A DNA stretch of 64,000 bases from a virus. The DNA is taken from positions 160,001 through 224,000 of IMG/VR virus record IMGVR_UViG_3300045988_171772. The stretch is one strand, 5' to 3'. Made by a program: the position numbers and the translations under genes. Positions 6,521 to 58,623 of this stretch are shown piece after piece (the first letter of the stretch is position 1; the number at the start of each line of letters is the position of its first letter). Below the pieces are notes generated by a model, which did not search any database, was not told the DNA's origin, and worked only from the letters and a program-made list of their open reading frames with translations.

Positions 6521-6606
6521 TGGTGCTGAAGATGGGAGTTGAACCCATATGGTATCACTACCAAGAGACTTAAGTCTCTTGCGTATGCCATTTTCGTCAC
6601 TTCAGC
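6521..6606 (-). tRNA. tRNA-Leu(UAA)-like, class II, CCA encoded, non-canonical anticodon arm
   Basis: The reverse complement reads GCTGAAG-TG-ACG-AAAATGGCATA-CGC-AAGAGACTTAAGTCTCTT-GGTAGTGATACCAT-ATGGG-TTCAACT-CCCAT-CTTCAGC-A-CCA. It has a 7-bp acceptor, a GG in the D-loop, a canonical T-arm and a long variable arm, with UAA centred in the anticodon loop. Confidence 0.75.
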
Positions 6607-7124: not shown

Positions 7125-8135
7125 TTACTCGTCTTTCTTATAAGGATTCCCACAGCTCATTTTCCCTTCGGTGCATCCACCACGAATACAACCAGGACCA
7201 GCATTCGCAAAGAGGGTAGGAGCTACTTCTTTACATTGCGTCAGCATCTGCCAAGCAATGTTACGAATTTCAGCCTGAGCTCTATTGCAGCATCTCAGTG
7301 TAAAGAAATGACGAAGTTCTCTTGCATTCATGGTAATCACCATATTGCAAGTGCAAGCATTCGGCAATACCGCTCTTGCATTCTCATTGGCAATCTTGGA
7401 ATACTTATTGAATGCATTCTTGAATTTATCATTCCCCATAAAGAGAATCTTGTAGATGCTGATCTGATCATTCTCTTCATAGTTCATGAAGTCAGACTCA
7501 GGATTGATGTAAGGATATCCTTCAGAATACCATTTCTTTTCCAGAGTGGCATAATAGGGCATATGCTCCTCATTCTCAGGAATCTTAATATAGTCCTGAT
7601 CACCAAAGAGCTCGTCTGTATTCTCACAGATAAAATAGCTGAGTAGCATAAAGAGAATCCGATCCCGAATGAGGATATAGTCCTTCTTGGATTCTGCAAT
7701 TGCATTGACGAAAGCATCATCGATTGCATACTGCATTTTCTCTCCAGTGTAATTCCCAGCAAGATTTGTATTGGGATGATGGAGAGGATACTCAATATAC
7801 TCAGGAACTCCAACTTGGAAATCGCTGAAGTTGATGTATCTCTGTGACTGCACAGAGAAACTGGCAATACGATGACGAGTGATCTGAGCGAGACAAGATC
7901 TTGTCATATCCGTAATAAGGAATGTGAAAGATGCGTGCTCGATCGGACTCTCATGACCATATCCTTCCAGATGAGAGAGATACCGAGATACCTCTTCATC
8001 CGTAAGAGACTCCCAGATCTTATCCGGTTCCGTATTGGAATAGCAGAGCTTAGCTGCCAAAGCAACCACTTTCTCAGGTTCCGGAGTGTGAGCAATCAGA
8101 GTAGCTTTCGGATACACGACTTTGATCGGTTCCAT
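7125..8135 (-). CDS. thyX: flavin-dependent thymidylate synthase ThyX
   Basis: ThyX signature RHRIASFSVQSQRY (RHRxxSxxxxSxR, nt 7836-7877). The N-terminal GHESPIEH and the C-terminal NARELRHFFTLRC blocks are typical of the family. Confidence 0.9.
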   Translation of the reverse strand: MEPIKVVYPKATLIAHTPEPEKVVALAAKLCYSNTEPDKIWESLTDEEVSRYLSHLEGYGHESPIEHASFTFLITDMTRSCLAQITRHRIASFSVQSQRYINFSDFQVGVPEYIEYPLHHPNTNLAGNYTGEKMQYAIDDAFVNAIAESKKDYILIRDRILFMLLSYFICENTDELFGDQDYIKIPENEEHMPYYATLEKKWYSEGYPYINPESDFMNYEENDQISIYKILFMGNDKFKNAFNKYSKIANENARAVLPNACTCNMVITMNARELRHFFTLRCCNRAQAEIRNIAWQMLTQCKEVAPTLFANAGPGCIRGGCTEGKMSCGNPYKKDE

Positions 8136-17400: not shown

Positions 17401-19307
17401 CTCTGATCTATACTGGAGAAGCCTATCAGAGAACCGAATGCACAGATTATTTCATTCCGAATGCAGAAGCTACCTACTATGACAGTCCTTCTACCAATCC
17501 GGATGCTTCCACTGTCAAGGGTACTCTTGAGAAAGGTACTGTGATCAAGCTCAGCGCTAAGATCAATCGTACCATGGTTGGTGGTGTCTTCTATGCATTC
17601 ACCATGAATGAACAGACATTCTACACCAATCCGGAAGCAGTGCAGAGCTTTGTCGGTACCTTTGATCTGGAGTATGAACCTCCTGAGATTGGATTCTATC
17701 TCCAGACTACTGTGGGTATTGACTATCGCTCAGTTCCTCATAACTATGCAGCTGCTATGGGTAGAGTGGAAGCTAATGTCCGTCTCCATGCTCCTCTGAA
17801 GATGAAGAATAGTGCTGATGGAAATACCTGGTGGGCAATTGCTTCCAGTAATCAGCAGTATGTCTTTATCATGGATGATGATACTCTGACTTCTGGGTAT
17901 CAGTATACCATTGAGGATATGGACAGTAACTTCTATTGCACAAGTGAAACCGCCAATGTGGTGATCTACTCTCATTGTGCCACTGATCCGGATAGCGTCA
18001 AGGCGATTGTCGAAGCTCCGGCAGAAGTCCTGGTCTATGGTAAGGTAACTGACTTTGAATATCCGGAATGGTATGCTACCACTCTGGAAGATGGAACGGT
18101 TGGTTACATCTGTGCCAATGAGAATTACAAATTTGATTATCAATATAACATCTATCAGCTGAGTGACTATGCTCATGCTAGAGTGTCTCAGAAGGTTACT
18201 GTCTATGAGAGACCCTCTGTGAAATCCACCGTCGTGAAAGAACTTGATGTGGGCGAATACTCGGTTGAGTTTATGGTGGGTGGAGATGGTACTGTGGATG
18301 GTACCTGGCTGATGATCGATGATGATCAGTTTGTCCAGACTGGTTCTACTGTCACTCTGGTGTATATCTATCCTTCGAATGTCGTCTCTAAGTTCCTTGT
18401 GATTAATGTCACAGGCGCAGATGGACTGAAGGCATACACCTATGCAGATCCCGCAGCTTCTACCACTATCATTCCCTATGGCATTCAGGTGAAGCCTACT
18501 TCCACCTTTGAAGCCAATGGTCATACTTGGTATACTATCAATTATGCTGGTAGTGTCTACTATGTCATGAGTGATGATCCGAATATGACTCTGATGAATG
18601 TGTATGATCAGAATCCGGTTACTGAAGGATTCTGTGCACATGTATTGGCAGATGGTGTTCTGATCTATAATGATCCCTCTACGATGGAAACTTCTATCGA
18701 ATTGGATAAGGATCAGTATTATCAGATCAGCTCTTCTCTGGTGGATGAAATCAACTCCAAATATTGGTATTCTCTCATCTTCATGGGCCAGGCCTATTAT
18801 ATGATGAAAGATCAGATCAATGTGGAATTCCTCTATAAATATCCTTCTACTCCGATGGATACTGGAATCTTCCTCCAGCCTCTGATCGATGACTACGAGA
18901 TTGTCAATAACCCCATTGACAAGGAAGTGGTTGGTACGATCGATACTTCTACTTCGATTGAGGTATTGGAGAAATTGGATACCCAGTATGATGGTTGCAC
19001 TTGGTATATGGTCCACTATAATGACCAGTATTCCTATGTCAATGTCAATGCTGATGGCACCAATGCTCGTATCTATGATGCAGAAGCAGATTCCTATCTG
19101 AGAGAGTTGAAGAAGATTCTGGCTAGTCTCCAGACTCAGAAAGAGTCTATTACTCAGCAGCAGGATTACATTGCTGAATTGAGCAATGCTCTGGATGCTA
19201 TCGAGGAATCTACCAATACTCTGGCTACCTCTGTGAGCTCTACTATTGAGAATCTCCAGAAGGTGATTACCAAGATGGAAGAAGACGCCGCTGATGGCAA
19301 TCCGTAA
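14466..19307 (+). CDS. giant multidomain peptidoglycan hydrolase: M23 peptidase + GH25 muramidase + about 14 SH3-like repeats + C-terminal coiled coil
   Basis: M23 motifs HKNSWAID and GNHIHFE fall at nt ~14487-14840. GH25 motifs GIDVSKYQSDINW and AWDFEAD fall at nt ~15777-16376. Repeated ~65-aa modules each carry an xxWY...G..YYV core (3 before GH25, about 11 after). Heptad-like tail at 19090-19300. Confidence 0.85.
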   Translation: MEKAYFGMNTLRVTYGPHGNKSHKNSWAIDLGGADTGIDPFYAPYTGIVRRLRSNSNELWFESSEPVQWADGTQDYVTIMMVHANSVPVASGQTVKQGEHLYNEGTKGNATGNHIHFEVGKGKFVSPYGWYDNGKGDDGSSVWNIYNQVDPTRVFFLKKDTKIMAVGSDNTTGASLNWKVDDGTTPGTLEKNSYFTVGVGNMEYFSTTDVNSNLGYLENGRTYIAYDSYVGSDYTWWRFRHPDGNLYWTAMIWNRCSAYGTIAETKIDGKVAVASSETALYNSPDPFNVANSVLPSNSRTPIYSQANLTLYNKTWYSIQVGGKIYWVPSDSISIEDTSWEDLLTTLPSGSTLTTIVDGVYYYSEPNPSKAISQLQLGTTLTATRQSWTGIMNYNWYEAMLEDGTLVYIVVNDTQVTLTKGGGGTVDPPTDPGDYTTEITGIDVSKYQSDINWDQVRGDPQNIQFAFIRAVSTRDATAPYVDEYLIQNMQGAQAAGIPYGVYIFTYGDNEAEIDAEVDLCINQLSGFNVTYPVAWDFEADNFKDTSKKEYNTDLILYALRRIQKRGYLPILYTYYNMIKNYVNYNRILENGFDIWIADYRGYNGFVNEGGKCTIWQYTSSGSVNGISGRCDMDTSYFDYHRYITDNGWNNGATSQWPSEEFYGYLTINASNAEAFPYPSVNAEGNYFLLNGASYSVIGKCTSEIEGYTWYLIKDNNLIRYVPFLGDRMTLTEGNFITSSYRFYKTTTKTWLSNYETMEYFDEPNVNTQLGYLTRNSPYEVFGILVDVVNDYKFVIIKMDSGYHYCVDFSKDDKCFLYESEDRYPLDTVQSGTKLTTNQEWIGYWEIPSTYDNSPLEFLDPGKYYDVVGKLKYQYDRKTWYAVNIPDVGIYYVMDDGKSTIVQNQYNIPYDYQPVENTNIEICAATNGYTSCDESSTGTPLVIDKVYSVFGKITDSSVSGEWYIIIQNDAAVYVKNTENATLIYTGEAYQRTECTDYFIPNAEATYYDSPSTNPDASTVKGTLEKGTVIKLSAKINRTMVGGVFYAFTMNEQTFYTNPEAVQSFVGTFDLEYEPPEIGFYLQTTVGIDYRSVPHNYAAAMGRVEANVRLHAPLKMKNSADGNTWWAIASSNQQYVFIMDDDTLTSGYQYTIEDMDSNFYCTSETANVVIYSHCATDPDSVKAIVEAPAEVLVYGKVTDFEYPEWYATTLEDGTVGYICANENYKFDYQYNIYQLSDYAHARVSQKVTVYERPSVKSTVVKELDVGEYSVEFMVGGDGTVDGTWLMIDDDQFVQTGSTVTLVYIYPSNVVSKFLVINVTGADGLKAYTYADPAASTTIIPYGIQVKPTSTFEANGHTWYTINYAGSVYYVMSDDPNMTLMNVYDQNPVTEGFCAHVLADGVLIYNDPSTMETSIELDKDQYYQISSSLVDEINSKYWYSLIFMGQAYYMMKDQINVEFLYKYPSTPMDTGIFLQPLIDDYEIVNNPIDKEVVGTIDTSTSIEVLEKLDTQYDGCTWYMVHYNDQYSYVNVNADGTNARIYDAEADSYLRELKKILASLQTQKESITQQQDYIAELSNALDAIEESTNTLATSVSSTIENLQKVITKMEEDAADGNP

Positions 19308-20509: not shown

Positions 20510-20597
20510 GCTGGTGTGTCCGAGTGGTTTAAGGAAGCAGTCTTGAAAACTGTCGGCTCGAGAGGGTCCGTGGGTTCAAATCCTACCACCAGCGCCA
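20510..20597 (+). tRNA. tRNA-Ser(UGA), class II, CCA encoded
   Basis: GCTGGTG-TG-TCC-GAGTGGTTTAA-GGA-A-GCAGT-CTTGAAA-ACTGT-(16-nt variable arm)-GTGGG-TTCAAAT-CCTAC-CACCAGC-G-CCA. Canonical 7-nt anticodon loop with U33 and anticodon TGA. Confidence 0.9.
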
Positions 20598-31614: not shown

Positions 31615-34600
31615 TCACTCTTCCAACATGGTGATCTCAATAGAGGTCACCAATTCGTAATTCTCATTCGAAGTATCGATGTTGATAAACTCAGGCACAT
31701 ACTCGTTATAACCCAGATCACGAATCTTAGTCGTGAAGTTCGATACGATCTTCTGTGCAGAGCTATCATAGTCATTGAATCCATAATACTCCATATAGAG
31801 AATTTCATCAAAGTTGGCTTTGCAATCTGCAATGAGGTTCATCATGTAGATCGAGCGACCCTCATTCTCAATCTCATTGACAGACTCAATGTAATTCTTG
31901 ACCCAAGCAGAGAATCGCTTTCTAAAGTCAGCCTCAGAAGACAGAGTATCTAGCTTGATACCAAACTTGAGAGTGCAGTTGACATGATCGAGATCTTTCC
32001 TCTGCTCAAGATCATTGCCAGATCCAACCTGATAGAATCTAGACCTACCATAGGTATTGAAGAATTTCATATCGATAGAGAAATTCTCTTCCAGATAGGT
32101 ATAGACATCACGGATCTCTTTGTAATTGGAGAGGATGCAACTTACAAGGAATTGTGAGTTTTCGATATTCTTAACCCACTGAGCCTTGATCAGAGGAACT
32201 CCATTCAGAGTATAGGTAGTCTTACCATAACTCTTCTGAGTTTCATTGATCGGGTCATCACTGAAAGGATCATATTCTGCAATAGCAGTAGACCGGATGA
32301 ATTCAATGGGTTCAATGAAGGAGAAGGATTCGGTTTCAGCCATGGTATATTGGTTGGTAAACGTATAGTTTCCAAGAATATACCGGTTGCTTCCATACTC
32401 TCCAGGGTTGTTATTGTCTGCATACTTGATAAAGGTTACGATATCAAATGTGCAGTTATTCATTGTGATATTGGCAGATTTGGTATCGACCTCATTGCCA
32501 TTTGCATCATAGACACCATGAGACAGAATGGTAGTATTCTCCGTAGAGATCATATCAGAAGCCTGCACATAACCACGGAATGTATAATAGTTATTTTCCT
32601 GATCGTACTCTTCCAATACCATCGGGATGAATCTACCGTTATTCTCAGTAAATTCTTCTCCATTGACGATCAGCATCATACGCATGAGCTGCTTATCCTT
32701 CAACTTACGAATGGCAAGAATGTCATTCTTATTGAAGGTATCGGCAACTTCATACTGCATGGTATATCCGGCATCAAACTGATAGTTGGAAGTGCCAAGA
32801 GACCAGTTCTGAGAAGATACACGAATCTTTTCAGAAGTACCATCATCATAGACGACCGTAGCATAGACACCGGATCGATAATCCACACGATTATCACCGG
32901 TACCAATGGTAAAGGGTTCCTCGTACCGAATGATGGAGACATAGCCACTATTCTTAGCACGAATCAGGATGGTACCATCTGCATCATTCTCTTTTGTGAT
33001 ATCCAAATCATTGTAATCACAAGCAAGATCCAGGAAATCCGTCTCTTCTGTAGAGGGAGTGATCACAGCCTCGAATGCATAGAAGTTCTCACCTACAATA
33101 GCATTCCGAGTTACCTTCATACTATTGAGGAGGAACTGGATGTAGCTGACTGCGCCATCGGCAATCGTCTTGTAGTCGAAGGTCAGTCTGGTATTGACAG
33201 AGTTGAGATAATACATCACCGCATTGGGTTTACGCATGATGGAGATAATAAACGGATTGGTATAGAGGAAATAGGAGATATCTGCATAGATAATTCCATC
33301 TTCCTCCTCAATCTGAGTATAGTCTTCCATATGCTTAATTGTGATCTTATTATTCAACTGCACATACTCGATGATGTCCGCAATGAATTTGTCCAAAGCG
33401 ACGCCAGTGACTTCGAAATGGTCACCATCAATCTCGGATACGATGATGTCTTCGGAATACATATAGAGTCTTCTGATGGCAGTACGAATCGCATCCGAGA
33501 TTTTCTCGTAGTTATTCATATCCGTCGCCAGAGAGAAGTTATGATCTCTAAGACCCATATACTTGTATCCTTCTTCACCATATCGGAAGATTGCACCAGG
33601 CTTCAGAATCAGACGATCTGAAGTCTCATAGTAATCATCGAAGTCAGAGTATCCCGTATGCTTCACAGTCATGGATACGGATCCTTGGCCAGATCCAGCA
33701 ATCGAGATGATATCAACATAATCCTCATAGCAATCTCTGATACGATAGTATCTCGTAATACTATTGAGGAAGATTTCGATGAAGTCTGTAGTAGATACTC
33801 CACTAAAGAGGAAAGTATCTTTATTTTGAGTCACACTGGTGATTCGATTATCAAAGTTAGGAAGATCAAGAGCACATTTCTCAATCTGAGTAATGACATC
33901 TTCATACGTTGAAGTACGAGTGTCTACCAGATTGGGATTGACAATGGTGCTATTGGTCTGATCCACACCTTGATTCAATTCGATATTCAGAGTATTGGAA
34001 GGAATCACCATACCAGCAGTATCCTTCATAAGCATGAAGGCACCATACAGACGCTGGAATACGTCATCTCTCTTCTTAAAGAATACGATCTTATTCGTAT
34101 CATTCAGCATCTTCTTGTCGAAATATCTCTGAAGGTCAGCATCCGTACAGATGGTTTCGTTGGTAGCATAGGCATACTCAACCTCAGTACGGAATTGCTC
34201 AATCTCTTCGATATCGACACCGCCAGTAGAAGCACCAATGGTCTGACCATCAATAATGACAGTAGACTGTCTGGGTGTGTTGGTACTGGGGAAGGTACAG
34301 GTAAGATTCCCTTTATATTCATCAAAGTTGCCATCTGCACCCAAGGTAGTGTAGAGTCTCACTCTGATGGTAGAGTTCCACTTCGGGTTGAAGTAGATAT
34401 TGGCAGGGAAGTGAATCCGAAGAGTGTTGTTATCCCTAAGCATATACTGCACAAAGGGAGTCCTCGGTGTATCCGAACCCAAGAGAATCTTTTCCAACTG
34501 AACTTCTGCACTATTGGCATTCTCCTGATAGAAGACTTCGAAGGATGCTAATTTACCAGAAATAGCAATATCATTGGTAACGACATCGACCAAAGAGTTC

Positions 34601-35259
34601 TTGGTAATCGCAATACTCTTCTCTGTCATAGTAACCTGACGGAGGAAGCATGTGATCAGAATCAGTCTTTCTCCATTCAGAGTCACAATCTTATTCTGGA
34701 GATAGACAGTATTGTCTGTATCCAGAGAATTCTTGGTAGAGATATCATAGCGAATCGTATAGACGTAATTGTCTCTACGAGCAATGGCATTGGTACCGGT
34801 ATTAACAGTATCCTGAATCAATCCGTTATATTTCGATCCAGTAACCACAATAGGATGATCCAGCATAAAGGGAATCTTATTTGCCATAAACTTGATATCA
34901 TCCCGGATGGTGTAGGATTGAGAATTCTTAATCAGATTGATGATGTCATTCTCTTTAATAACAAGAACGGATCTGACACGAGCTGGTACACTCATAGGAG
35001 CATCCAGTCTCTGCAGAGCTGCCATACGATAAATCGATTCATCATACAGAGCATGAGTCGGATAGAACTCTCTACGAGCTACAGAAACCGCATTGAAGAC
35101 ATCTTCCGTTACGGTACCCATAACTTCGTTGATATATCCGAAGATACCTGTACGATAATTCGCTACTTGATCAAAGTTAAAGTATTTAGGAGCAATGTCA
35201 TCTATCCAGTCTTTGACCGCAGTCGTAAGATCTGTATAGTCTCTCAAAGATCCAGCCAT
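31615..35259 (-). CDS. very large hypothetical protein (1214 aa), probable virion (baseplate/tail) component
   Basis: Uninterrupted 3.6-kb ORF with AAAGGAG 12 nt upstream. The structural role is inferred only from size, beta-rich composition and neighbourhood. Confidence 0.65.
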   Translation of the reverse strand: MAGSLRDYTDLTTAVKDWIDDIAPKYFNFDQVANYRTGIFGYINEVMGTVTEDVFNAVSVARREFYPTHALYDESIYRMAALQRLDAPMSVPARVRSVLVIKENDIINLIKNSQSYTIRDDIKFMANKIPFMLDHPIVVTGSKYNGLIQDTVNTGTNAIARRDNYVYTIRYDISTKNSLDTDNTVYLQNKIVTLNGERLILITCFLRQVTMTEKSIAITKNSLVDVVTNDIAISGKLASFEVFYQENANSAEVQLEKILLGSDTPRTPFVQYMLRDNNTLRIHFPANIYFNPKWNSTIRVRLYTTLGADGNFDEYKGNLTCTFPSTNTPRQSTVIIDGQTIGASTGGVDIEEIEQFRTEVEYAYATNETICTDADLQRYFDKKMLNDTNKIVFFKKRDDVFQRLYGAFMLMKDTAGMVIPSNTLNIELNQGVDQTNSTIVNPNLVDTRTSTYEDVITQIEKCALDLPNFDNRITSVTQNKDTFLFSGVSTTDFIEIFLNSITRYYRIRDCYEDYVDIISIAGSGQGSVSMTVKHTGYSDFDDYYETSDRLILKPGAIFRYGEEGYKYMGLRDHNFSLATDMNNYEKISDAIRTAIRRLYMYSEDIIVSEIDGDHFEVTGVALDKFIADIIEYVQLNNKITIKHMEDYTQIEEEDGIIYADISYFLYTNPFIISIMRKPNAVMYYLNSVNTRLTFDYKTIADGAVSYIQFLLNSMKVTRNAIVGENFYAFEAVITPSTEETDFLDLACDYNDLDITKENDADGTILIRAKNSGYVSIIRYEEPFTIGTGDNRVDYRSGVYATVVYDDGTSEKIRVSSQNWSLGTSNYQFDAGYTMQYEVADTFNKNDILAIRKLKDKQLMRMMLIVNGEEFTENNGRFIPMVLEEYDQENNYYTFRGYVQASDMISTENTTILSHGVYDANGNEVDTKSANITMNNCTFDIVTFIKYADNNNPGEYGSNRYILGNYTFTNQYTMAETESFSFIEPIEFIRSTAIAEYDPFSDDPINETQKSYGKTTYTLNGVPLIKAQWVKNIENSQFLVSCILSNYKEIRDVYTYLEENFSIDMKFFNTYGRSRFYQVGSGNDLEQRKDLDHVNCTLKFGIKLDTLSSEADFRKRFSAWVKNYIESVNEIENEGRSIYMMNLIADCKANFDEILYMEYYGFNDYDSSAQKIVSNFTTKIRDLGYNEYVPEFINIDTSNENYELVTSIEITMLEE

Positions 35260-47241: not shown

Positions 47242-49764
47242 TCACTCTTCTTCCGTTACAGATTTCGAGACAGTATCCTCATCTGCCGTTTCATCTCTGG
47301 CCTCCTCCGAAGATTCTTTCAGAGTGTCATCATGCATTTTGGAGGTGATCATAAACATCATCTCCTCGGTGATACTGCCAAGATCAAGTTTCTTTACTTC
47401 CTCTTGTTCGAAGACCCATTTCCAAGCTGCCTTCATCGGAGCTTCCTTGTCCGAGGAGACCACTTCATAGGTATCCATAAACTCATTATAGAGATCAAAG
47501 AGCTTGTCATAAATCGGTTTCCGAGAGAGACGATCCACCACAGTGAATCCATGGGTACGATACTGACGGATCGTATCCCGATAGACATACTCGTATTCTC
47601 CCTCTACATCAAAGTCAAGCTCAATGCCCATACCTTTGAGATAGGCAGCGAGAATGTCCACATTGATATTCGTGAAGTTTTCTTCTACCTTGAGCTTTTG
47701 GATGTCGAAGGGATCTCCCGATGCTTTGAGAATCCGATCCAGGGACTTTCTTGCAATGGGAGAAGAACGAGTGAAGAGGTTGTGCTCTGCAATGGTCAGA
47801 CCCGACACAGCTGCAAAGAGGTTGTGCGTCTCACCAATCTTGATTGGAGACCGAGAATAGGGAGACAGATTGGATTTCTTGTCATTGCTCTTTGCAGGGA
47901 CCTGTTTCTTATCAGTACGACCAGTGGACCGAGCACTGAAATTCTTATTGGAAGTCTGCTTCAGAAGATACATATATTTGCTGCCGATGACAACCGGCCT
48001 CATGATCTTTTTACCTTTGATCCCAAAGAGATCAATGTAAGCATCATAGGGTTTGATATCCGGCCATTCATCATAGATCTTCCGAAGACAGTCATACCGC
48101 ATTTTGGAATCCGGACGTTTGACGATATAGAACCCATTCTCCTCGACATCCTGGATGAATTTCTTCTTTGCTTCTTCATCCACGATCTCAACCTGGATTC
48201 CATCCACATCAAATTTCTGATCCCAACTATTCCACATCTGGAGGAAGAAGTCATGCTGCTCCAGATTGAGGAGTTCGAGGAATCTCAAAATAACCTGCAT
48301 CTTATCCTCGATGTCGGTCATCTTCTTGATCTTCCTCTGAAGTTGTTCTGCGATGAAGTTGATTTCTACTTCATAGAGCTGGTCTGTATTCAGACGACGA
48401 ATCGAACCAGAGGAATTCAGAAGAATGTCGGCGACAACCTTCTCTCCATCCTCGGTTACATAATAGGGCATATCACAGTCATCGACAATCGAGACCTCTT
48501 TGGCATTCTCAGTCATGGTTTCCGGATTGGAATCCTCACTGAGCTGATCCACGATATTGTCAACGATGTGATTGAAAGACTCCGCAGGCTTCATGCCAAA
48601 CTTCTCACCTGCATTGGTGATCTTGGAGATAATACCTTTATCACCATAACGACCTGTGAGTTTGAATCCTTCTTCCAGATCCACCACAGCAATCGTCTTG
48701 AAGATGACAACCAGATTGGCGAAAGCTCTGTCTTTGTCTTTCCATTTGTATTCTTTATCGTTGAAGCGCTGATACTTTGCATTCAGATAGGATACCTGAG
48801 GAGTATAATGAGATCCAGAGGATTCAATCATCCTGCACATCTCAGACACTTGGGCAGCATACTGGCATTCCTGATCATAATACTTCTTGAGCTGCCGATA
48901 GAAGACATTTTCCGGGAAGGGATCGTCTCCATTGTAGCAGACATCAATGTCATAGATCAGAGAATTCTTCGGAGCAAAATATTCGGTATCGGTATCCGAG
49001 ATGGTACGAAGTCTTTTATCCTGGAAGTCAAAGATGGCATGATTCAGATTCACACGGGCTACTGCACATACGGTGGAATTCTTGACATACTCACCCACTT
49101 CCGGGAAGCATTTGTACTCACCAGGAGCACCATATACATTCTTGAGGATGTCGTTCGAGTTGACAGAGACCCGAACCTCATCCACTTCCACAGATTGGAC
49201 ATCCTTGGCCCATCCTCTGCGAAGTTTGATGGCATCTTCGATCGTGGCATTGTCCGTCACATACATGACACGGGCATTTTTGCCAATCCGATACTGCATA
49301 TGCTCATCATAGGAAGTTGATTTATAGAGTACCTCATTCTGGACGGTATCTCCCTCTCGGAGAGAATCCATCTTGGAGGTATTGTAAGCGAATCCAAACT
49401 TTTCGGTCAGATTCTCAGCGATTGCCTTCTCGATCACATCCCAAGTATCGGTCTCTGCATTGTAGAGAAACATGGAATAGACATGTTTGCCTTCATACTT
49501 GGGGATGATCTTCTTAACTTCCCACGTCCCTTCCATCTTCTTATAGGCATGAGAATACTTACCAAAGATATTCTCATAACCAGTCAGAATATGGGGGACA
49601 TCGGGATTCATCATGGTAAGGAACTGCTTCTCATTCGAAGAAAACATGTAGAGACGGGATGAGTCAACGCCTTCGGGAAATCCTAACAAAGTAGGACCGA
49701 AAACTTTCTCCATTTTGTCTCCCCATTCTTCGTCCATTTTACGAAATTCGTCTGTGCCTGCCAT
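47242..49764 (-). CDS. multisubunit RNA polymerase beta subunit, C-terminal half, encoded as a separate gene
   Basis: AAAGGAGG SD. Colinear with bacterial RpoB from the DANRALMG.NMQRQAVP block onward: DSSRLYMFSSNEKQFLTMMNPDVPHILTGYE; GRYGDKGIISKI (cf. GRHGNKGVISKI); LLNSSGSIRRLNTDQ (cf. LNPLGVPSRMNIGQ); YMYLLKQTSNKNFSARSTG (cf. [19 protein letters not shown]); IGETHNLFAAVSGLTIAEHNLF (cf. [22 protein letters not shown]). Confidence 0.85.
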   Translation of the reverse strand: MAGTDEFRKMDEEWGDKMEKVFGPTLLGFPEGVDSSRLYMFSSNEKQFLTMMNPDVPHILTGYENIFGKYSHAYKKMEGTWEVKKIIPKYEGKHVYSMFLYNAETDTWDVIEKAIAENLTEKFGFAYNTSKMDSLREGDTVQNEVLYKSTSYDEHMQYRIGKNARVMYVTDNATIEDAIKLRRGWAKDVQSVEVDEVRVSVNSNDILKNVYGAPGEYKCFPEVGEYVKNSTVCAVARVNLNHAIFDFQDKRLRTISDTDTEYFAPKNSLIYDIDVCYNGDDPFPENVFYRQLKKYYDQECQYAAQVSEMCRMIESSGSHYTPQVSYLNAKYQRFNDKEYKWKDKDRAFANLVVIFKTIAVVDLEEGFKLTGRYGDKGIISKITNAGEKFGMKPAESFNHIVDNIVDQLSEDSNPETMTENAKEVSIVDDCDMPYYVTEDGEKVVADILLNSSGSIRRLNTDQLYEVEINFIAEQLQRKIKKMTDIEDKMQVILRFLELLNLEQHDFFLQMWNSWDQKFDVDGIQVEIVDEEAKKKFIQDVEENGFYIVKRPDSKMRYDCLRKIYDEWPDIKPYDAYIDLFGIKGKKIMRPVVIGSKYMYLLKQTSNKNFSARSTGRTDKKQVPAKSNDKKSNLSPYSRSPIKIGETHNLFAAVSGLTIAEHNLFTRSSPIARKSLDRILKASGDPFDIQKLKVEENFTNINVDILAAYLKGMGIELDFDVEGEYEYVYRDTIRQYRTHGFTVVDRLSRKPIYDKLFDLYNEFMDTYEVVSSDKEAPMKAAWKWVFEQEEVKKLDLGSITEEMMFMITSKMHDDTLKESSEEARDETADEDTVSKSVTEEE

Positions 49765-53384: not shown

Positions 53385-54224
53385 TTACTTCCGCTTGGTA
53401 TTGTTGAAGCGGCCTGTTCCACGACGATTGTTGTTGCCCTGACGATCGGTACGAGGAGCACCTTCATACTTGCGATCCTCATATCGACGATAGGGACGGT
53501 CAGAATCCTTGTTGAATTCCTTCTTGGGCTTGTCGAAACGCAGGCAATCCTTATCGGGGAACTGATACAGATTGAAGGGATGCTTGATACGCTCAGGCTC
53601 ACCTTCGATCACACGGGGTTCCTCCGGCTTCATGGTGAATTCACCATTCTCATACACAACGGTACGATCGACATAGACGGTCTTACCGGTGGGGAAGCGC
53701 TCCGGATTCGAAGTACCCTTCTTGCGAGTACGCTCCGGATAGAAGTAGTGAATGGTGAAGGAAGCATCTCCATCGGCAGGGAGTTTGTCCTTGTCGACCA
53801 TGACGGCCAGCCACAGCATCTTGCTGTAATTGGCATCGCCAACCTTGATGGTATACTTGGTGGAGATCACGATGCGATTCTTCAGAATCCGGATCCACTC
53901 AGGCATGTCATTCTGATCCAGATAACCACGGAAGGGAATCGCAAGCATGAACAGATCTTCGTCATCTCCAATGTTCCGATCGCCGGACGAAACACGGAAT
54001 GTCTTGGCACCAGTTTTGGTCAGAATGCCACGAATGTTGAGCTTACGGTCACTTTCGTTTTCGCAGGAGAATTCACGCACCTTCAAGAAAGGCTTTTCAG
54101 GACGGGGATGTTCCTCGTCATACTCGATAAAGTCGGGAGGAGTGAAGCACCGATCGGTATAGTTGGTAGCAGGATCAGAGATCAGTTCTTCTTTGAAAAG
54201 TTCTTGATTAAGATATTTCAGCAT
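53385..54224 (-). CDS. hypothetical protein with Arg/Asn/Gly-rich basic C-terminal tail (279 aa); candidate abundant nucleic-acid-binding protein
   Basis: GGAAGGG lies 7 nt upstream of the ATG at 54224. The gene is monocistronic between terminators 54323-54372 and 53306-53364 and is markedly G+C-elevated (4 overlapping artefact ORFs in the track). The tail is ...RPYRRYEDRKYEGAPRTDRQGNNNRRGTGRFNNTKRK. Confidence 0.65.
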   Translation of the reverse strand: MLKYLNQELFKEELISDPATNYTDRCFTPPDFIEYDEEHPRPEKPFLKVREFSCENESDRKLNIRGILTKTGAKTFRVSSGDRNIGDDEDLFMLAIPFRGYLDQNDMPEWIRILKNRIVISTKYTIKVGDANYSKMLWLAVMVDKDKLPADGDASFTIHYFYPERTRKKGTSNPERFPTGKTVYVDRTVVYENGEFTMKPEEPRVIEGEPERIKHPFNLYQFPDKDCLRFDKPKKEFNKDSDRPYRRYEDRKYEGAPRTDRQGNNNRRGTGRFNNTKRK

Positions 54225-54322
54225 AATGATACCCTTCCGTAAAATAGAATTTTGAATGTGTGAAAATAGACGGCGGCGATTGCCTCTCAGAGGCATTAAC
54301 ATAACGTATAGAATTTATTAAA

Positions 54323-54377: not shown

Positions 54378-55187
54378 TTACTTTTTATTCATCGTCTCAT
54401 CGGTCATGACCTTGGCTGTATAGGGGAAGATAGACTTCCTCTTGATGATCTCATGATGAAGGGCGTAATTCTCTCTGAATTCTTCCACTGTGCAGATGGG
54501 GAATTCCCATACGATCATATCATATGATGATTTGAATCGGACTGGATAATAGTAGCAGCATTGAGAGACCATAGGTTCGTCATTGAGACTGTGCTCCACA
54601 TCGTAATCAACACGAATGGTGTGAATATCCGGAGGGCTGATGAAGGACTTGACGATCATGAAGACGATGGCTCGAGGAAATTCATCCTTTTGCTCCTCTT
54701 CATCCAAGATCACCATAGATCCTTTCTGAATCTCATACATCCAGGATTTCTGAATGGGTTGCACATACCCAATCGTCTCTCTGGCATAGATGTAATTCTT
54801 TCTTGTGATTCCTTTCAGACTGGAGAGTCCCTCTTTGTCTTCCGGACTAACAGGCAATTCCATATATGCCACATTGGTATTGTATTTCTTCGCCTCTTCA
54901 TAGGGAAGTTCCATCCCATAGAAATCAGATTTTGGTCTGTTATTGGGATCGGCACTGAGAATCTCAATGACAGAGACGAAGGAATCCATGATATTGGGGA
55001 AATCCTCTCTAGATCCTATAATGACAAAGAAGGGATTATTGGCCACTACCTTTGCCTTATTGGATCTGGCATAGGCTTCGATGATATAATACTTACTATC
55101 ATTTTCATCAAGCCGGATATTCCACTGAAAGAGATCTGGATTGATGACATGGTAGCATTCAATGAAGGTACTACTCGGCGCTTTCAT
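54378..55187 (-). CDS. hypothetical protein (269 aa)
   Basis: GGAGGTGA SD 9 nt upstream. Confidence 0.7.
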   Translation of the reverse strand: MKAPSSTFIECYHVINPDLFQWNIRLDENDSKYYIIEAYARSNKAKVVANNPFFVIIGSREDFPNIMDSFVSVIEILSADPNNRPKSDFYGMELPYEEAKKYNTNVAYMELPVSPEDKEGLSSLKGITRKNYIYARETIGYVQPIQKSWMYEIQKGSMVILDEEEQKDEFPRAIVFMIVKSFISPPDIHTIRVDYDVEHSLNDEPMVSQCCYYYPVRFKSSYDMIVWEFPICTVEEFRENYALHHEIIKRKSIFPYTAKVMTDETMNKK

Positions 55188-55206
55188 TGGTATGACTCAC
55201 CTCCAT

Positions 55207-55259
55207 ATAAAAAGAAAGGCAGTTTACAGATCCATCTCCCCAGAGATCCATAAACTACC
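55207..55259 (-). terminator. intrinsic terminator
   Basis: 15-bp stem 55218-55232/55245-55259. Its three non-Watson-Crick positions are G-U pairs only on the minus strand, and it is followed by TTTCTTTTTA. Confidence 0.7.
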
Positions 55260-55268
55260 TTGTTTGGA

Positions 55269-56306
55269 TTAGACTTTATCCTTGGCTTTGTCGGCGGCTT
55301 CCTTGATGATCTCATTGATCTTATCAACATAACCAGACACGACATGAGCCAGATTCGGATATTCCGCCTCATCCAGATTCCGAAGATCGGCACGGAGTTC
55401 ATAGACATTGTCATTGAACATCCGGCTGATCCTCTTGGTATACAAATCCAGCATCTGGGTCTGAATCTGCTCGGGCGCATCCTCAAGAACATCCAGAGCG
55501 AAGGTAGTCAGAGAATTCCAAACCTTCTTCACTTCGGATCCCTTGAAGTCATTGATGCGATTCATACCCTCGAGAAGGATATAGGTCGCAACCTCAACCA
55601 CATTGGATTCACCCATAATCTGAGAGAAGAACCGACCCCACTTGACACGATCCATGTTCACTTCATAGGAATCGACGATCTCATAGATGTCGGTCAGTAC
55701 CCGATTGGCATAGAAACCAACCTGATACTTATTGATATACTTGGGATCCGGAACTCCCAGGAAAGCACTCCGGCAGATCTCCACCGGCATATTGGAGTCA
55801 TACGAGACTCTCTTGGCTCTCCTCTTGATAATCTTCATGGCGGTCTTGATCAGATCCTTGAGATTATCATTATACTTATTGATGTGGATCATCTCTTCTC
55901 TGGCTTCAGACCGAGAGATGTTTCCTTTCTCCAGATCACTCCGAGTCCGATCTTCAAACTCTTGAGAGACCTGGATACCAGCCAGAGCAACAGTATGCAG
56001 GAAGGTTGCCACAGACCGATCGAATTCATCATAGCCATTATAGGCTTCTTCTTCGATCGCATTAACAGTGGTCTTGATGACCTTCCGATGGGCCATCATG
56101 ACATACATGTCCTTGGTATCCTTCTGCAACTTAGCACGATCGATCTCTTCCGGAGGATTGAAGAGCATCCTCATAAACTCTTCACTCTCCAGATAATAGA
56201 CAATCGCTCTTTCTGCGGTAGACGCAGATACTCGTTTCTGAATGATGTCATCCAATAGGTCATTGAATGAATCAATCGTAAACGAATTTCGTTTGCGCAA
56301 TCCCAT
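55269..56306 (-). CDS. hypothetical helical protein (345 aa), co-operonic with the tubulin homologue
   Basis: AAAGGAGG SD. The start lies 49 nt downstream of the tubulin gene stop, with no terminator between them. Confidence 0.7.
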   Translation of the reverse strand: MGLRKRNSFTIDSFNDLLDDIIQKRVSASTAERAIVYYLESEEFMRMLFNPPEEIDRAKLQKDTKDMYVMMAHRKVIKTTVNAIEEEAYNGYDEFDRSVATFLHTVALAGIQVSQEFEDRTRSDLEKGNISRSEAREEMIHINKYNDNLKDLIKTAMKIIKRRAKRVSYDSNMPVEICRSAFLGVPDPKYINKYQVGFYANRVLTDIYEIVDSYEVNMDRVKWGRFFSQIMGESNVVEVATYILLEGMNRINDFKGSEVKKVWNSLTTFALDVLEDAPEQIQTQMLDLYTKRISRMFNDNVYELRADLRNLDEAEYPNLAHVVSGYVDKINEIIKEAADKAKDKV

Positions 56307-56355
56307 AGGTTATTCCTCCTTTTGTATTTGGATTACTCTATAATGATATACGCAA

Positions 56356-57516
56356 TTAGAAAATATCAGGAATGTCAGTCAGCTTTGCCTTGTCATTCCG
56401 AACGGAAGAGACACCGAGAATTCGATTCCGGTTGGCATCATTCCGAGTGGACTTGATGGCAGAGAGATCTGCCAGCTCATCCGACACAGAAGCCGTATCA
56501 GTATTGTTGAGGGCTTCACATTCCTTGGCAATCTCAGTGCATTCCGAGATACGGTTGATAGGCTTGGACATACCAGACATGATGACAGAGAAGTCAGCAC
56601 GCTGGGCATTCTCCACCGTATAGTTGAGGAAGGTAGCCAGAGGACGACCGGTATATCCTTCCAACTCAGAGAAGTTCCCAGACTTGCAGGGGTCATTCGT
56701 CTGATCCGGAGTATTCATGATGATACCGAGATTCCGAACGACACGATCCTTCTGAGGATCTACAGCCGCAGTATGCTCCAACATATCAATCATGATCGCC
56801 TGGGAAGATTTCTCAGACAGATCATTCTTGGTGATGTTGGCACGATGGTTGATCATCATGTATCCTTCAGTGGAGAGCATGGTCAGCATGTCAGACTCAT
56901 CGATCATCCCATAAGGAGTTTCCTTGAGATAATCACCACGAATGACACTGACACAATCTGCGATATACTCCGCAGTCTTCCGATAGGCTTCCTCCATCGG
57001 ATCATCCTCAAAGGAATGCAGATCAGAGAGCATGTAGGTCATATGCAGCTTGGGATTGGTGACCTCATTCATGCACTCAACGGTGTTGAACTGAGCCTGA
57101 GCAGACTCAGAATGCTTCGGAAGAATCCCGAAGAAGATGATGACCTTATTGGGATAGAAGGTCATCAGACGATTGACGAGAAGCGGACCAGCACCAGAGC
57201 CAGTGCCACCAGAAGTAGATGCTGCCACAATGACAACATCGGCATCCTCGATCACATCGGTAAAAGCAGGAGTCTGATTGAAGAGGCGTTCGAGTTCGAT
57301 GGTCAGAAACCCTTTGGCATTCTGACGGTTCTTACCCGCACCACGCTTATTGCCGATGAGGAAGGACGGAATGGTCTTATCCAAGATCTTATCGTCCAGA
57401 TCCTTCTGGCTCGAGTTGATGCAGAAGACGGTGTGACCCTTCTTGCGGGCCACTTCGACTGCCTGGCAACCAGCGTTGCCAATACCGATGAGTGAGACTT
57501 TCAAATTCGTATCCAT
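56356..57516 (-). CDS. tubulin/FtsZ-superfamily GTPase (phage PhuZ/TubZ-like)
   Basis: N-terminal GIGNAGCQ (cf. FtsZ GVGGGGGNA), GAGKNRQNAKG, and the tubulin signature SGGTGSGAGP (GGGTG[ST]G; nt 57193-57210). The protein is 386 aa. AAAGGAG SD. Confidence 0.8.
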   Translation of the reverse strand: MDTNLKVSLIGIGNAGCQAVEVARKKGHTVFCINSSQKDLDDKILDKTIPSFLIGNKRGAGKNRQNAKGFLTIELERLFNQTPAFTDVIEDADVVIVAASTSGGTGSGAGPLLVNRLMTFYPNKVIIFFGILPKHSESAQAQFNTVECMNEVTNPKLHMTYMLSDLHSFEDDPMEEAYRKTAEYIADCVSVIRGDYLKETPYGMIDESDMLTMLSTEGYMMINHRANITKNDLSEKSSQAIMIDMLEHTAAVDPQKDRVVRNLGIIMNTPDQTNDPCKSGNFSELEGYTGRPLATFLNYTVENAQRADFSVIMSGMSKPINRISECTEIAKECEALNNTDTASVSDELADLSAIKSTRNDANRNRILGVSSVRNDKAKLTDIPDIF

Positions 57517-57548
57517 AATATAGATACACTCCTTTCTATTTTAGTATA

Positions 57549-57560
57549 AAAATAATATAT
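57549..57560 (-). promoter_or_regulatory. promoter-like motif ATATATTATTTT
   Basis: Copy of RTATATTATT, 33 nt upstream of the tubulin ATG at 57516. Confidence 0.35.
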
Positions 57561-57796
57561 GTAAAAATTCCGTTTCCTGAATCGTATAGGAGCCCTGAGA
57601 TTAACAAGCTCTAAAGATATGGTTTTCTTAGAAATACAAAAATGTAAGTACCGAAGAATACGATCTTCTCTGGTGCTTTCGGGCTATTCGGATTGTGTTA
57701 AGATCCGGACTAAGATGGGCTGTCTTAGTTATTGGCTAATTCCTCCTTAGATGTTTTCTGACATTTCGATTTCCTCCTTTTAGATTTCCATTCGGC

Positions 57797-57857
57797 AAAA
57801 CCTCCCATAGGATTCCAAGCGGGTATACGGAATCCTATGGGAGGTTTTATTTGTTTC
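57797..57857. terminator. intrinsic terminator (20-bp stem)
   Basis: AAAACCTCCCATAGGATTCC (57797-57816) / GGAATCCTATGGGAGGTTTT (57829-57848), immediately after the stop at 57859. Confidence 0.75.
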
Positions 57858-57858
57858 G

Positions 57859-58623
57859 TTAGATATAAGGACTATCCTTGTCAGTGAGAGCCTGACTTCT
57901 TTCTTCATTCTTGGGTTTTGGAAGAAGATTTCCACTGCCAATCAGATTGGTCTTAAACCCTTGCATGAGGAAGTAGATATTCAGTGTATTCAGAGAAGTC
58001 TTATTGGCCTTGTCATTGGTAAGATCCTTCATGGATACATACCCATTCTTCGCAATGGCAGTGGCCATCTCGTTTCTGGCAACTTCATCATCCGCTCTGG
58101 GACCTAAGAATTCCTTCAGAGCATATTCAGCACCAGTGGCAAGAAGAGAGTAAGTCTCCACGTCAGAGTTACGACCATTCTTGTCATCACCAGTAACCTG
58201 ACCAGTCAGAGGATTTCTCTGAGTATTGGATGTAGATCCGGAGTTCTTCTTCTCCAATGTCTGCATCATTCTCTTTTCATGGATGTAACCAACAGGAACC
58301 TTCTCAGGTGTCACGGTTACATTCTCAAGATCATGGTTGATATGAGGGAGATAGACAGTCTCATACAGAGGGACTCCCAGATATTTGGCAGCCTTCTCAA
58401 TATTCTCATATTTGATATCTCTCATATACTCAACGATCTCAAGATAGAATTGCTGAGAATCATCTGCAAAGAATTTACGGATGTATTTGTCAAATTGATC
58501 ATCGCTCATGGAAGAGAAAAACTTCTCGTACTTCTTCGCATTATCTCCCGAAGGATCCAAGAGATTAAAAGTATCCAGAAGCATCTTCATGAACTTCTTT
58601 CTCTTTTCCGCAATGGTAGCCAT
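57859..58623 (-). CDS. hypothetical protein whose C-terminal ~140 aa resembles the extreme C-terminus of RNA polymerase beta (254 aa)
   Basis: AAGGAGG SD. VPVGYIHEKRMMQTLEKKNSGSTSNTQRNPLTGQVTGDDKNGRNSDVETYSLLATGAEYALKEFLGPRADDEVARNEM lines up with E. coli RpoB [78 protein letters not shown] (from memory). Confidence 0.4.
   Translation of the reverse strand: MATIAEKRKKFMKMLLDTFNLLDPSGDNAKKYEKFFSSMSDDQFDKYIRKFFADDSQQFYLEIVEYMRDIKYENIEKAAKYLGVPLYETVYLPHINHDLENVTVTPEKVPVGYIHEKRMMQTLEKKNSGSTSNTQRNPLTGQVTGDDKNGRNSDVETYSLLATGAEYALKEFLGPRADDEVARNEMATAIAKNGYVSMKDLTNDKANKTSLNTLNIYFLMQGFKTNLIGSGNLLPKPKNEERSQALTDKDSPYI

Follow-up and report, generated by a model that had tools for sequence, protein, structure and literature searches.

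A putative two-gene cytoskeletal operon in an uncultivated jumbo phage: a TubZ-lineage tubulin encoded with a conserved helical protein

Described relatives of the locus

Two settings have been described for phage tubulins, the PhuZ spindles around the chimallin nucleus and the TubZRC systems that partition plasmid-prophages. The locus described here fits neither of them. It lies in a 64,000-nucleotide stretch of DNA (the window) from an uncultivated jumbo phage that is related to Bacillus phages AR9 and PBS1 and has a genome of about 265 kb. A profile of its tubulin family scores 168 bits against gp138 of Bacillus phage G, 121 bits against TubZ of Clostridium phage c-st and 27 bits against PhuZ of phiKZ. 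The closest solved structure is TubZ of the Clostridium botulinum phage c-st (4xcq/3v3t), which also represents the best PHROG family. The two proteins have equivalent T4 and T7 residues and a long flexible C-terminal tail with a tip of the same type, D-x-x-D-(I/F)-F-x-K-Y, and their identity of about 20-32% falls mainly within the GTPase domain. Unlike c-st, which is a 186-kb plasmid-prophage, the source of the window is a jumbo phage that encodes RNAPs of its own. The window also lacks the TubR upstream, the MerR-type TubY downstream and the centromere repeats of the c-st TubZRC system, and the downstream partner of its tubulin is a different and unrelated protein.

Among isolated phages, the nearest homologue is gp138, an uncharacterised FtsZ-like protein with 25.6% identity over 328 aa. 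It has a similar tail tip, and the host of phage G is Gram-positive. However, gp138 is flanked by a 98-aa protein and a kinase-like protein, and phage G has neither a homologue of the partner nor the AR9-type genome backbone. Like PhuZ of the phiKZ-like Chimalliviridae, the tubulin of the window is encoded by a jumbo phage that has multisubunit RNAPs, but the sequences are distant and no chimallin was found in the sequence searched. Since a phosphatase-family protein is encoded downstream of phiKZ PhuZ, that tubulin does not have the conserved helical partner. Cytoskeletal NTPases encoded together with a non-enzymatic accessory protein are found in Prosthecobacter, where BtubA and BtubB share an operon with BtubC (Bklc), an all-helical repeat protein. 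A filament NTPase is also encoded with an adaptor in the Corynebacterium prophage CGP3, where the actin-like AlpC and its adaptor AlpA serve phage DNA replication (PMC4446434). Neither BtubC nor AlpA is related in sequence or fold to the partner described here, and the analogy is one of organisation only.

Layout of the locus and identity of the tubulin

The three ORFs of 386, 345 and 269 aa listed in the preliminary description are all present (Table 1) and lie on the minus strand, which that description did not specify. Genes for gyrase, RNAP subunits and UvsX surround the tubulin-partner pair. On its 5' side the tubulin transcription unit is bounded by the hairpin of the upstream RNAP-subunit gene, which folds with -36.8 kcal/mol (z = -8.2) and is followed by UUUU. 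The promoter-like motif reported upstream of the tubulin start was found as a TATATTAT box at 57559-57552, the end of which lies 36 nt upstream of the ATG. This box belongs to an extended motif, cgAAAAg-N~14-ctgTATATTAT, that occurs at least 10 times in the 64-kb window; all of these copies lie 5' of genes in the correct orientation. It is overlapped by a sigma-70-type match (TTTACA-16-TAAAAT, 57565-57538). The spacer between the tubulin and partner genes has no significant structure, in agreement with the proposed co-transcription, and carries the ribosome-binding site of the partner (AGGAGG, 56320-56315) 8 nt ahead of its ATG. A terminator had been placed between the 345-aa and 269-aa genes, and RNA folding revealed a hairpin at this position (-23.5 kcal/mol, z = -4.0, then CUUUCUUUUU) that a simple terminator scan did not call; this terminator-like hairpin is taken to close the two-gene operon at its 3' side. 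The assignment of the tubulin and 345-aa genes to one operon is thus based on the upstream terminator, the promoter motif, the unstructured spacer with its AGGAGG and the downstream hairpin with its U-run.

Table 1. Features of the tubulin locus within the window
Feature	Coordinates	Strand	Basis or remark
Terminator hairpin closing the RNAP-subunit gene upstream	57797-57848	minus	perfect 20-nt inverted repeat
Promoter-like element 5' of the tubulin gene	57552-57590	minus	TATATTAT box and weak upstream cgAAAAg-like element
Tubulin/FtsZ-family GTPase, 386 aa	56356-57516	minus	
T4 tubulin signature GGTGSG, residues 103-108	57193-57210	minus	sequence
T7 loop GMIDESD, residues 203-209, catalytic acidic residues	56890-56910	minus	alignment
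Tail tip, residues about 372-386, ...KLTDIPDIF	56359-56403	minus	conserved, shared with c-st TubZ
Tubulin-partner spacer, 49 nt, unstructured	56307-56355	minus	fold -3.9 kcal/mol, z = -0.1
All-alpha partner protein, 345 aa, new unannotated family	55269-56306	minus	
Terminator-like hairpin and U-run after the partner gene	55205-55261 (hairpin 55216-55261)	minus	RNA folding
269-aa ORF adjoining the pair	54378-55187	minus	

The 269-aa ORF is on the same strand after the terminator, as previously described, and has its own hairpin downstream (-21.7 kcal/mol, z = -5.2). Its product does not match any Pfam or PHROG family. Because no homologue was found in 85 related loci, it lies outside the conserved module, and its membership of the operon is rejected.

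The 386-aa protein scores 54.1 bits with Pfam Tubulin (PF00091), for which the cut-off is 33 bits, and its translation contains the motifs GIGNAGCQ (residues 11-18), GAGKNRQNAKG (59-69) and SGGTGSGAGP (102-111). Within the T1 nucleotide-binding loop (GIGNAG, residues 11-16), an alignment of 32 family members shows G13, N14 and G16 to be invariant and G11 and A15 nearly so. The T4 signature is similarly conserved, with G103, G104 and S107 invariant and T105, G106 and G108 nearly so, and T105 aligns to T100 of c-st TubZ. In the tubulin/FtsZ superfamily, an acidic residue of the T7 loop contributes to the next subunit by completing its active site. In this loop D206 is invariant and D209 nearly invariant among the 32 members, and D209 aligns to E200 of c-st TubZ, the residue mutated as E200A (PMC5322520). 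The AF2 model (pLDDT 85.3, pTM 0.86) has the two-domain tubulin fold, with a GTPase and a C-terminal domain. The top match provided by Foldseek is c-st TubZ 4xcq (E = 4.7e-24, TM 0.84), and FtsZ and CetZ structures give TM values of 0.76-0.78 over ~330-358 aligned columns. The earlier identification as a tubulin-superfamily GTPase is therefore well founded, and with the nucleotide-binding site and the T7 catalytic loop both complete in the sequence, the protein most likely polymerises into GTP-dependent dynamic filaments.

The family-profile scores given above, the PHROG assignment and the structural ranking place this tubulin in the TubZ lineage and not with PhuZ. PHROG 17961, to which c-st TubZ belongs, ranks first and the PhuZ PHROG second. 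PhuZ structures are absent from the Foldseek top 50, and the sequence match between PhuZ and the window tubulin has E = 2e-5 over 77 aa. The closeness is specifically to TubZ of the c-st type, with Bacillus plasmid TubZ structures ranking lower in Foldseek. Searches of 50,697 phage records with the locus (megablast) and the tubulin (tblastn) gave no match at E <= 1e-5, and at E <= 5 the only matches in the same records were to phage G and c-st/D-1873.

The tail of the tubulin begins with a disordered linker (residues 338-371, pLDDT < 50 in the AF2 model), after which the confidence rises to about 65. The motif (D/E)-L-x-D-I-F-x-K-F/Y is kept across the tubulin family and is common to the c-st TubZ tail (EIDINDFFSKYM), the tip of which interacts with TubRC and TubY (PMC5322520). 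Since c-st TubZ has the motif without having the 345-aa partner, the motif does not specifically imply the partner. By analogy with other TubZ and PhuZ proteins, the tail may also touch neighbouring filament subunits.

The 345-aa protein and its pairing with the tubulin

The AF2 model of the partner is all-alpha with 16 helices (pLDDT 87.8, pTM 0.83). No real match was found in Pfam, PHROGs, PDB sequences or PDB folds. A match to MCM_N in 13 of 60 family members and one to histone H2B (E about 0.02) were rejected as weak helical noise, and alpha-solenoid fold matches with TM < 0.3 were not accepted as a functional lead. The only fold matches in BFVD are two uncharacterised metagenomic proteins labelled 'Myoviridae sp.' (TM about 0.5). 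No homologue was found in isolated phages, and a search of 1.84 billion proteins returned at least 150 clusters at 50% identity. The partner thus belongs to a previously undescribed family that has no annotation, solved structure or cultured representative. It is not TubY, as comparison with c-st TubY gave an hhalign probability of 0.5% and no phmmer match, and a relationship to phage G gp139 was ruled out by hhalign. The protein is acidic (pI 5.3), which argues against direct DNA binding and points to no cargo, and no HTH was detected in it.

A homologue of the partner is encoded immediately 3' of the tubulin gene on the same strand in about 98% of the loci with room for it (80/82), and this pairing extends to tubulins with 29% identity. 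The partner profile was initially built from library representatives alone and was independent of the loci counted. All 16 tubulin-containing loci fetched through a different anchor gene also contain the partner, and none of the loci examined carries it separately from the tubulin. The pair stays linked while the surrounding gene order varies; for example, the RNAP-254 gene that adjoins the tubulin in the window is 30-55 kb away on some contigs carrying both. With the two genes adjacent in about 98% of related contigs, the pair has the appearance of a phage cytoskeleton distinct from the PhuZ spindle. Of the points made in the preliminary description, the suggestion that the 345-aa protein may be a new partner of the filament has the best support.

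Phage background and interpretation of the pair

The genes for the virion, RNAPs and replication in the window are those of an AR9-like jumbo phage. RNAP beta fragments are encoded at 47242-49764 and 57859-58623, and their best tblastn matches are Goe21, PBS1 and AR9, with 29% identity to PBS1/AR9 and 20-24% to chimalliviruses. The best matches of three markers, RNAP beta, DNA polymerase and a 1214-aa protein, are to AR9/PBS1, S6/PALS_2 and phiR1-37; LPJP1 is also among the closest phages for the marker genes, and homologues of the 1214-aa protein are confined to the AR9/PBS1, S6/PALS_2 and phiR1-37 lineage. The marker genes do not show the genome backbone of the Chimalliviridae. PBS1, PALS_2 and phiR1-37 are examples of phages with multisubunit RNAPs and without chimallin (Prichard et al. 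2023, PMC10299810), so a split RNAP in a phage of this lineage does not imply a phage nucleus. A Gram-positive host is plausible for the window phage, which encodes a lysin with M23 and GH25 domains and has nearest isolates that mostly infect Firmicutes.

The split RNAP had been taken to point to the PhuZ and phage-nucleus setting, and this assignment is not supported by the TubZ lineage of the tubulin or by the marker genes, which are closest to those of chimallin-less phages. For such a setting to hold, chimallin would have to be encoded outside the 64 kb analysed, and the tubulin would centre or rotate a protein-shelled nucleus as in phiKZ-like phages. The window does cover 64 kb of about 265 kb, tubulin and multisubunit RNAP genes co-occur in jumbo phages (PMC7824862), and phages with chimallin and PhuZ occur in human oral metagenomes (PMC12625630), while some distant members of the present tubulin family derive from human-microbiome samples. 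However, a profile of seven chimallins gave no hit in the window (best E = 0.8), in line with the earlier statement that none could be recognised there, and none in about 3 Mb of relatives' sequence around two anchor genes; nor does any large window ORF match the chimallin PHROG 4795. According to the annotation or its note, chimallin lies directly upstream of an RNAP subunit gene in six of the seven chimalliviruses compared, whereas the beta'-N gene found in one subclade of the relatives has no chimallin-like neighbour upstream. Taken with the TubZ-type profile, PHROG and structure rankings, these results make a phiKZ-like spindle improbable.

The TubZ affinity itself raises the prospect of a type III (TubZRC-like) partition system, in which the tubulin would segregate an extrachromosomal phage genome in a carrier or pseudolysogenic state and the helical protein would take the place of TubR in contacting a centromere. 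PBS1-type phages are known for pseudolysogeny. The C-terminal tail tip is the same as that of c-st TubZ, and c-st TubZ, the closest characterised relative, serves as the motor in the partition of a plasmid-prophage (PMC5322520). The other components of such a system were not found, however. No ORF that could encode TubR fits the 340-nt region upstream of the tubulin, and phmmer searches with c-st TubR and phage G gp137 as queries found no TubR in the window or the 85 related loci, which agrees with the reported lack of a small TubR-like gene next to the tubulin. TubY homologues are likewise absent from both sets, and the region 57400-57900 contains only the terminator inverted repeat and chance two-copy matches in place of centromere iterons. 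The partner is acidic and no HTH was detected in it, the operon lies amid replication and transcription genes with which it has the promoter motif in common, and no lysogeny genes (integrase, repressor) were seen among the window ORFs scanned. A partition role is accordingly considered unlikely. It is also conceivable that the two genes share an inherited gene order only, the 345-aa protein being functionally unrelated to the tubulin and not interacting with it; the fold of the partner is uninformative, and UvsX, gyrase and other genes of the block are often close by as well. Such a coincidence has little probability given that same-strand adjacency persists in the counted loci while flanking genes move by tens of kb, that the tubulin-partner spacers are short and that the partner does not occur on its own in those loci.

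The locus is best read as a two-gene phage cytoskeletal operon, in which a TubZ-lineage tubulin GTPase and an undescribed, obligate helical partner would couple a filament to cargo (a probability of roughly 60%). By analogy, the tubulin probably works as PhuZ does, through dynamic filaments that position phage material. The helical partner would bind the tubulin filament, probably through the conserved tail tip, because the c-st tip docks accessory proteins and the partner is the only conserved neighbour here. As an adaptor or regulator, it would then link the dynamics of the filament to a cargo, for example replicating phage DNA or assembly intermediates. A more specific version is offered tentatively and at clearly less than even odds: that the partner is the first of a new class of adaptors or regulators that bind tubulin at the conserved TubZ tail tip, and that with the tubulin it constitutes a second, independent phage cytoskeleton. 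In jumbo phages that lack chimallin and infect gut and oral bacteria, probably Gram-positive ones, this cytoskeleton would organise either replication or assembly.

The locus places a TubZ-type motor in a widespread lineage of uncultivated jumbo phages that have multisubunit RNAPs and no chimallin in the sequence examined. If the second cytoskeleton is real, tubulin-based intracellular organisation in jumbo phages would not depend on a phage nucleus. Should the pair function as filament and adaptor, it would provide a concrete candidate for how infection is organised in jumbo phages without a nucleus, and a new accessory protein with which to study the regulation of bacterial tubulin filaments and their coupling to cargo.

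Organization of the tubulin operon

The 386-aa tubulin of the window and the 345-aa protein encoded next downstream, called the partner here, are followed by a 269-aa ORF (table below). All three ORFs named in the preliminary description are present on the minus strand, and the motifs that it quoted lie within the 386-aa ORF. A TATATTAT box is located 36-43 nt 5' of the tubulin ATG and occurs 13 times in the window, against roughly 6 expected by our own estimate from base composition. The longer motif cgAAAAg-N~14-ctgTATATTAT(t) has at least 10 copies across the window, each 5' of a gene and in the correct orientation, and may represent a promoter class that is phage-specific or of the extended -10 type. 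The spacer between the tubulin and partner genes is 49 nt long and unstructured (z = -0.1), with an AGGAGG 8 nt 5' of the partner ATG. Folding identified a hairpin (-23.5 kcal/mol, z = -4.0) 3' of the partner gene, with a U-run after it, that a simple terminator scan had overlooked; the 269-aa gene ends in a terminator hairpin of its own. These signals delimit the tubulin and partner genes as a two-gene operon. With ORFs, motifs and transcription signals all bearing it out, the preliminary description of the locus, with no terminator after the tubulin gene and one before the 269-aa gene, is accurate.

The 269-aa gene, which it listed with the other two, is no part of the unit, as homologues of its product are absent from all 85 related loci around tubulin relatives; the protein also has no family match. 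Flanked by two terminator-like hairpins, the ORF has the appearance of a lineage-specific insertion that separates the partner gene from a conserved 305-aa gene. In nine close relatives, the latter is the first conserved gene to follow the tubulin-partner pair; it encodes a basic protein (pI 9.4) with an R/N/G-rich C-terminus.

Coordinates of features in the window and in related loci (L001, L004, L016 and L021 are individual loci)
Feature	Sequence	Position	Strand	Remarks
tRNA gene	window	6524-6606	minus	Rfam-confirmed
ThyX (Thy1)	window	7125-8135	minus	205 bits
1613-aa protein	window	14466-19307	plus	N-terminal M23 peptidase domain; GH25 muramidase domain
tRNA-Ser(UGA) gene	window	20510-20597	plus	Rfam-confirmed
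1214-aa protein	window	31615-35259	minus	PHROG 18960
305-aa protein	window	53385-54302	minus
269-aa ORF	window	54378-55187	minus
Partner ORF, 345 aa	window	55269-56306	minus
Tubulin ORF, 386 aa	window	56356-57516	minus
Terminator hairpin	window	57797-57848		end of upstream RNAP-subunit gene; perfect 20-bp, -36.8 kcal/mol, z = -8.2
RNAP-254	window	57859-58623		RNAP-subunit gene adjoining tubulin gene upstream
Promoter-like motif starts	window	4977, 7118, 10876, 21543, 36501, 37316, 43702, 57559, 60677, 60838
Cpn60/GroEL-family chaperonin, 647 aa	L001	3195-5138
Partner homologue	L001	11273-12322
70-aa ORF between tubulin and partner	L004	11345-11557
Insertion between tubulin and partner	L016, L021	about 11150-12450		about 1.3 kb

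Relationships of the tubulin and its partner

The 386-aa ORF matched the Pfam Tubulin domain PF00091 (54.1 bits, cut-off 33), PHROG 17961, the family of c-st TubZ (58 bits), and PHROG 4733, 'tubulin PhuZ' (44 bits). A sequence search of solved structures returned c-st TubZ as the best match (E = 1.8e-14), followed by CetZ, 201phi2-1 PhuZ (E = 3e-7), and FtsZ and eukaryotic tubulins. A family profile built from 32 metagenomic relatives scored 168 bits for Bacillus phage G gp138 and 121 bits for c-st TubZ versus 27 bits for phiKZ PhuZ, so that the protein is TubZ-type and not the PhuZ towards which the preliminary description had leaned. The AlphaFold model (pLDDT 85.3, pTM 0.86) is structured in its core (residues 1-337), which a disordered linker (338-371) joins to a short tail; its top Foldseek hit was c-st TubZ (E = 4.7e-24, TM 0.84), then CetZ, FtsZ and Bacillus TubZ structures, with no PhuZ structure among the top 50. 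T105 of the T4 loop and D209 of T7 align with T100 and E200 of c-st TubZ, and D206 is invariant in the 32 relatives. Judged from the alignment, the residues required for tubulin activity are conserved, and the protein is a TubZ-lineage tubulin predicted to be catalytically complete. The tail ends in a tip, (D/E)-L-x-D-I-F-x-K-F/Y, that is conserved across the whole family; c-st TubZ has this tip in common with it (EIDINDFFSKYM), while that of phage G gp138 resembles it more loosely. The c-st TubZ tail tip contacts the TubR-tubC complex and TubY (PMC5322520).

The partner does not match any Pfam or PHROG family; its confidently predicted fold is all-alpha, with 16 helices (pLDDT 87.8, pTM 0.83). 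Foldseek analysis against the PDB gave nothing significant (best E = 0.016, TM < 0.3), the sole BFVD matches were two uncharacterised metagenomic phage proteins, and a 60-sequence profile found nothing credible among PDB sequences or Pfam. TubY and phage G gp139 were each compared with the partner and are unrelated to it. By tblastn it is absent from all of 50,697 phage records, and no paper on the gene pair was found in the literature. An exhaustive profile search recovered homologues that form at least 150 clusters (50% identity), about 60 of them full-length at 320-450 aa; a remoter group of about 280-310 aa has the C-terminal two thirds alone in common. The longer homologues carry disordered R/N/D-rich extensions with a poly-Asp end. 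Many among P0096-P0115 and the L001 homologue likewise end in a low-complexity R/N/D extension and poly-Asp/Glu tail; the long disordered extension is absent from the window partner.

Three relatives were obtained by exact protein look-up, and in all of them a homologue about 350 aa long follows the tubulin, immediately in two and with a 70-aa ORF intervening in L004. The first locus set comprised 80 IMG/VR loci with tubulin relatives (29-43% identity), mostly on contigs of 190-280 kb, and was scanned with a partner profile made from library representatives only. Of the 82 loci with room for a homologue, 80 have one immediately after the tubulin gene, in the same orientation. In both exceptions the tubulin is divergent. 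An AAA+-like gene comes after it in one case; in the other, it is succeeded by a zinc-ribbon-repeat gene, whose translation, read by eye, may be that of a homing endonuclease, and then by a recombinase-like gene. RNAP-254 served as the anchor for a second set, again of 80 loci; a tubulin is encoded in 16 of these, and the partner adjoins it in every one (16/16). In all, the analysis gave roughly 60 distinct tubulin-partner pairs.

Lineage of the source phage

Also encoded in the window are split RNAP beta subunits and a family-B DNA polymerase, proteins resembling GyrA and the UvsX recombinase, and ThyX, along with virion proteins and a prohead protease. Many samples have contigs, the longest about 276 kb, that carry the exact tubulin, and one relative derives from a Hadza gut metagenome. 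The best tblastn isolates for the RNAP beta subunit (840 aa) were Goe21/PBS1/AR9 (29% identity), followed by Staphylococcus S6/PALS_2, Listeria LPJP1 and Yersinia phiR1-37, with chimallin-encoding phages (chimalliviruses) at 20-24% at most. The DNA polymerase pointed to that lineage too, and Fusobacterium JD-Fnp phages ranked just below it. The 1214-aa protein, a possible lineage marker, matched 24 isolate records, with homologues only in AR9/PBS1, S6/PALS_2, LPJP1, phiR1-37 and the Fusobacterium JD-Fnp lineage. The source is an AR9/PBS1-related jumbo phage. No tubulin was detectable by tblastn in the isolates of this lineage (PBS1, PALS_2, phiR1-37).

The ThyX gene, encoding a flavin-dependent thymidylate synthase, suggests that the phage synthesizes dTMP; PBS1/AR9, the nearest cultured relatives, have uracil-containing DNA. 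The tRNA at 6524-6606 was left unnamed by ARAGORN, but is probably tRNA-Leu(UAA) because by eye it has anticodon TAA (loop CTTAAGT) and a long variable arm. The 1613-aa protein is probably a virion-associated cell-wall hydrolase, and its domains are consistent with, without proving, a Gram-positive host. In a close relative (L001), the chaperonin gene precedes the tubulin block by a few kilobases; among jumbo phages, HSP60 has been noted to occur together with tubulin and multisubunit RNAPs (PMC7824862).

Role of the tubulin-partner pair

The preliminary description took the split RNAP as a sign of the phage-nucleus setting. A nucleus spindle, with chimallin encoded outside the window, is improbable, as the three markers match the AR9/PBS1 lineage and no chimallin was found in the window or loci searched. 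Chimallin-encoding phages form a single clade, and PBS1, PALS_2 and phiR1-37 exemplify multisubunit RNAPs without chimallin (Prichard et al. 2023, PMC10299810). A profile of seven diverse chimallins found nothing among window ORFs of at least 80 aa (best E = 0.8), in the 85 tubulin loci or in a further 1.43 Mb around RNAP-254, and large window ORFs did not match chimallin PHROG 4795. Chimallin lies directly upstream of an RNAP subunit gene in six of seven chimalliviruses (by annotation or its note), the examined stretch of the remaining one, PhiPA3, covering the chimallin gene alone; the beta'-N gene (NADFDGD motif) near the tubulin in one subclade of the present lineage has no chimallin neighbour. 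Absence of chimallin from the genome is likely, short of proof because about 200 kb outside the 64-kb window is unread.

A carrier-state partition system, with the partner substituting for TubR, would suit a TubZ-type tubulin and is the least unlikely alternative, at perhaps one chance in five. Unlike the classical TubZRC of c-st, which has TubR and TubY, the locus has neither: homologues of these proteins and of phage G gp137 were not found in the window or loci, no TubR gene would fit upstream of the tubulin, and no iterons are near the operon. The pairing could also be merely conserved gene order with no functional link, but this is doubtful. RNAP-254 and the tubulin gene, neighbours in the window, may lie 30-55 kb apart on large contigs common to both locus sets, and the pair thus stays together while the surrounding order shifts.

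The preferred reading is a putative TubZ-type cytoskeleton of the phage, with a new family as its obligate accessory: a TubZ-lineage tubulin, catalytically complete by its residues, and a novel, conserved helical protein are transcribed together. The new-partner idea of the preliminary description is thereby upheld by the 80/82 and 16/16 loci, while its PhuZ/nucleus leaning is set aside and the 269-aa gene falls outside the unit. The tubulin would form dynamic filaments, and the partner may bind them, most plausibly via the conserved tail tip, because accessory proteins dock there in c-st TubZ. The pair would then position phage DNA or assembly intermediates during infection. Phage TubZ-type cytoskeletons are of a known kind; what is new here is a phage TubZ-type tubulin with a novel, putatively obligate accessory family.
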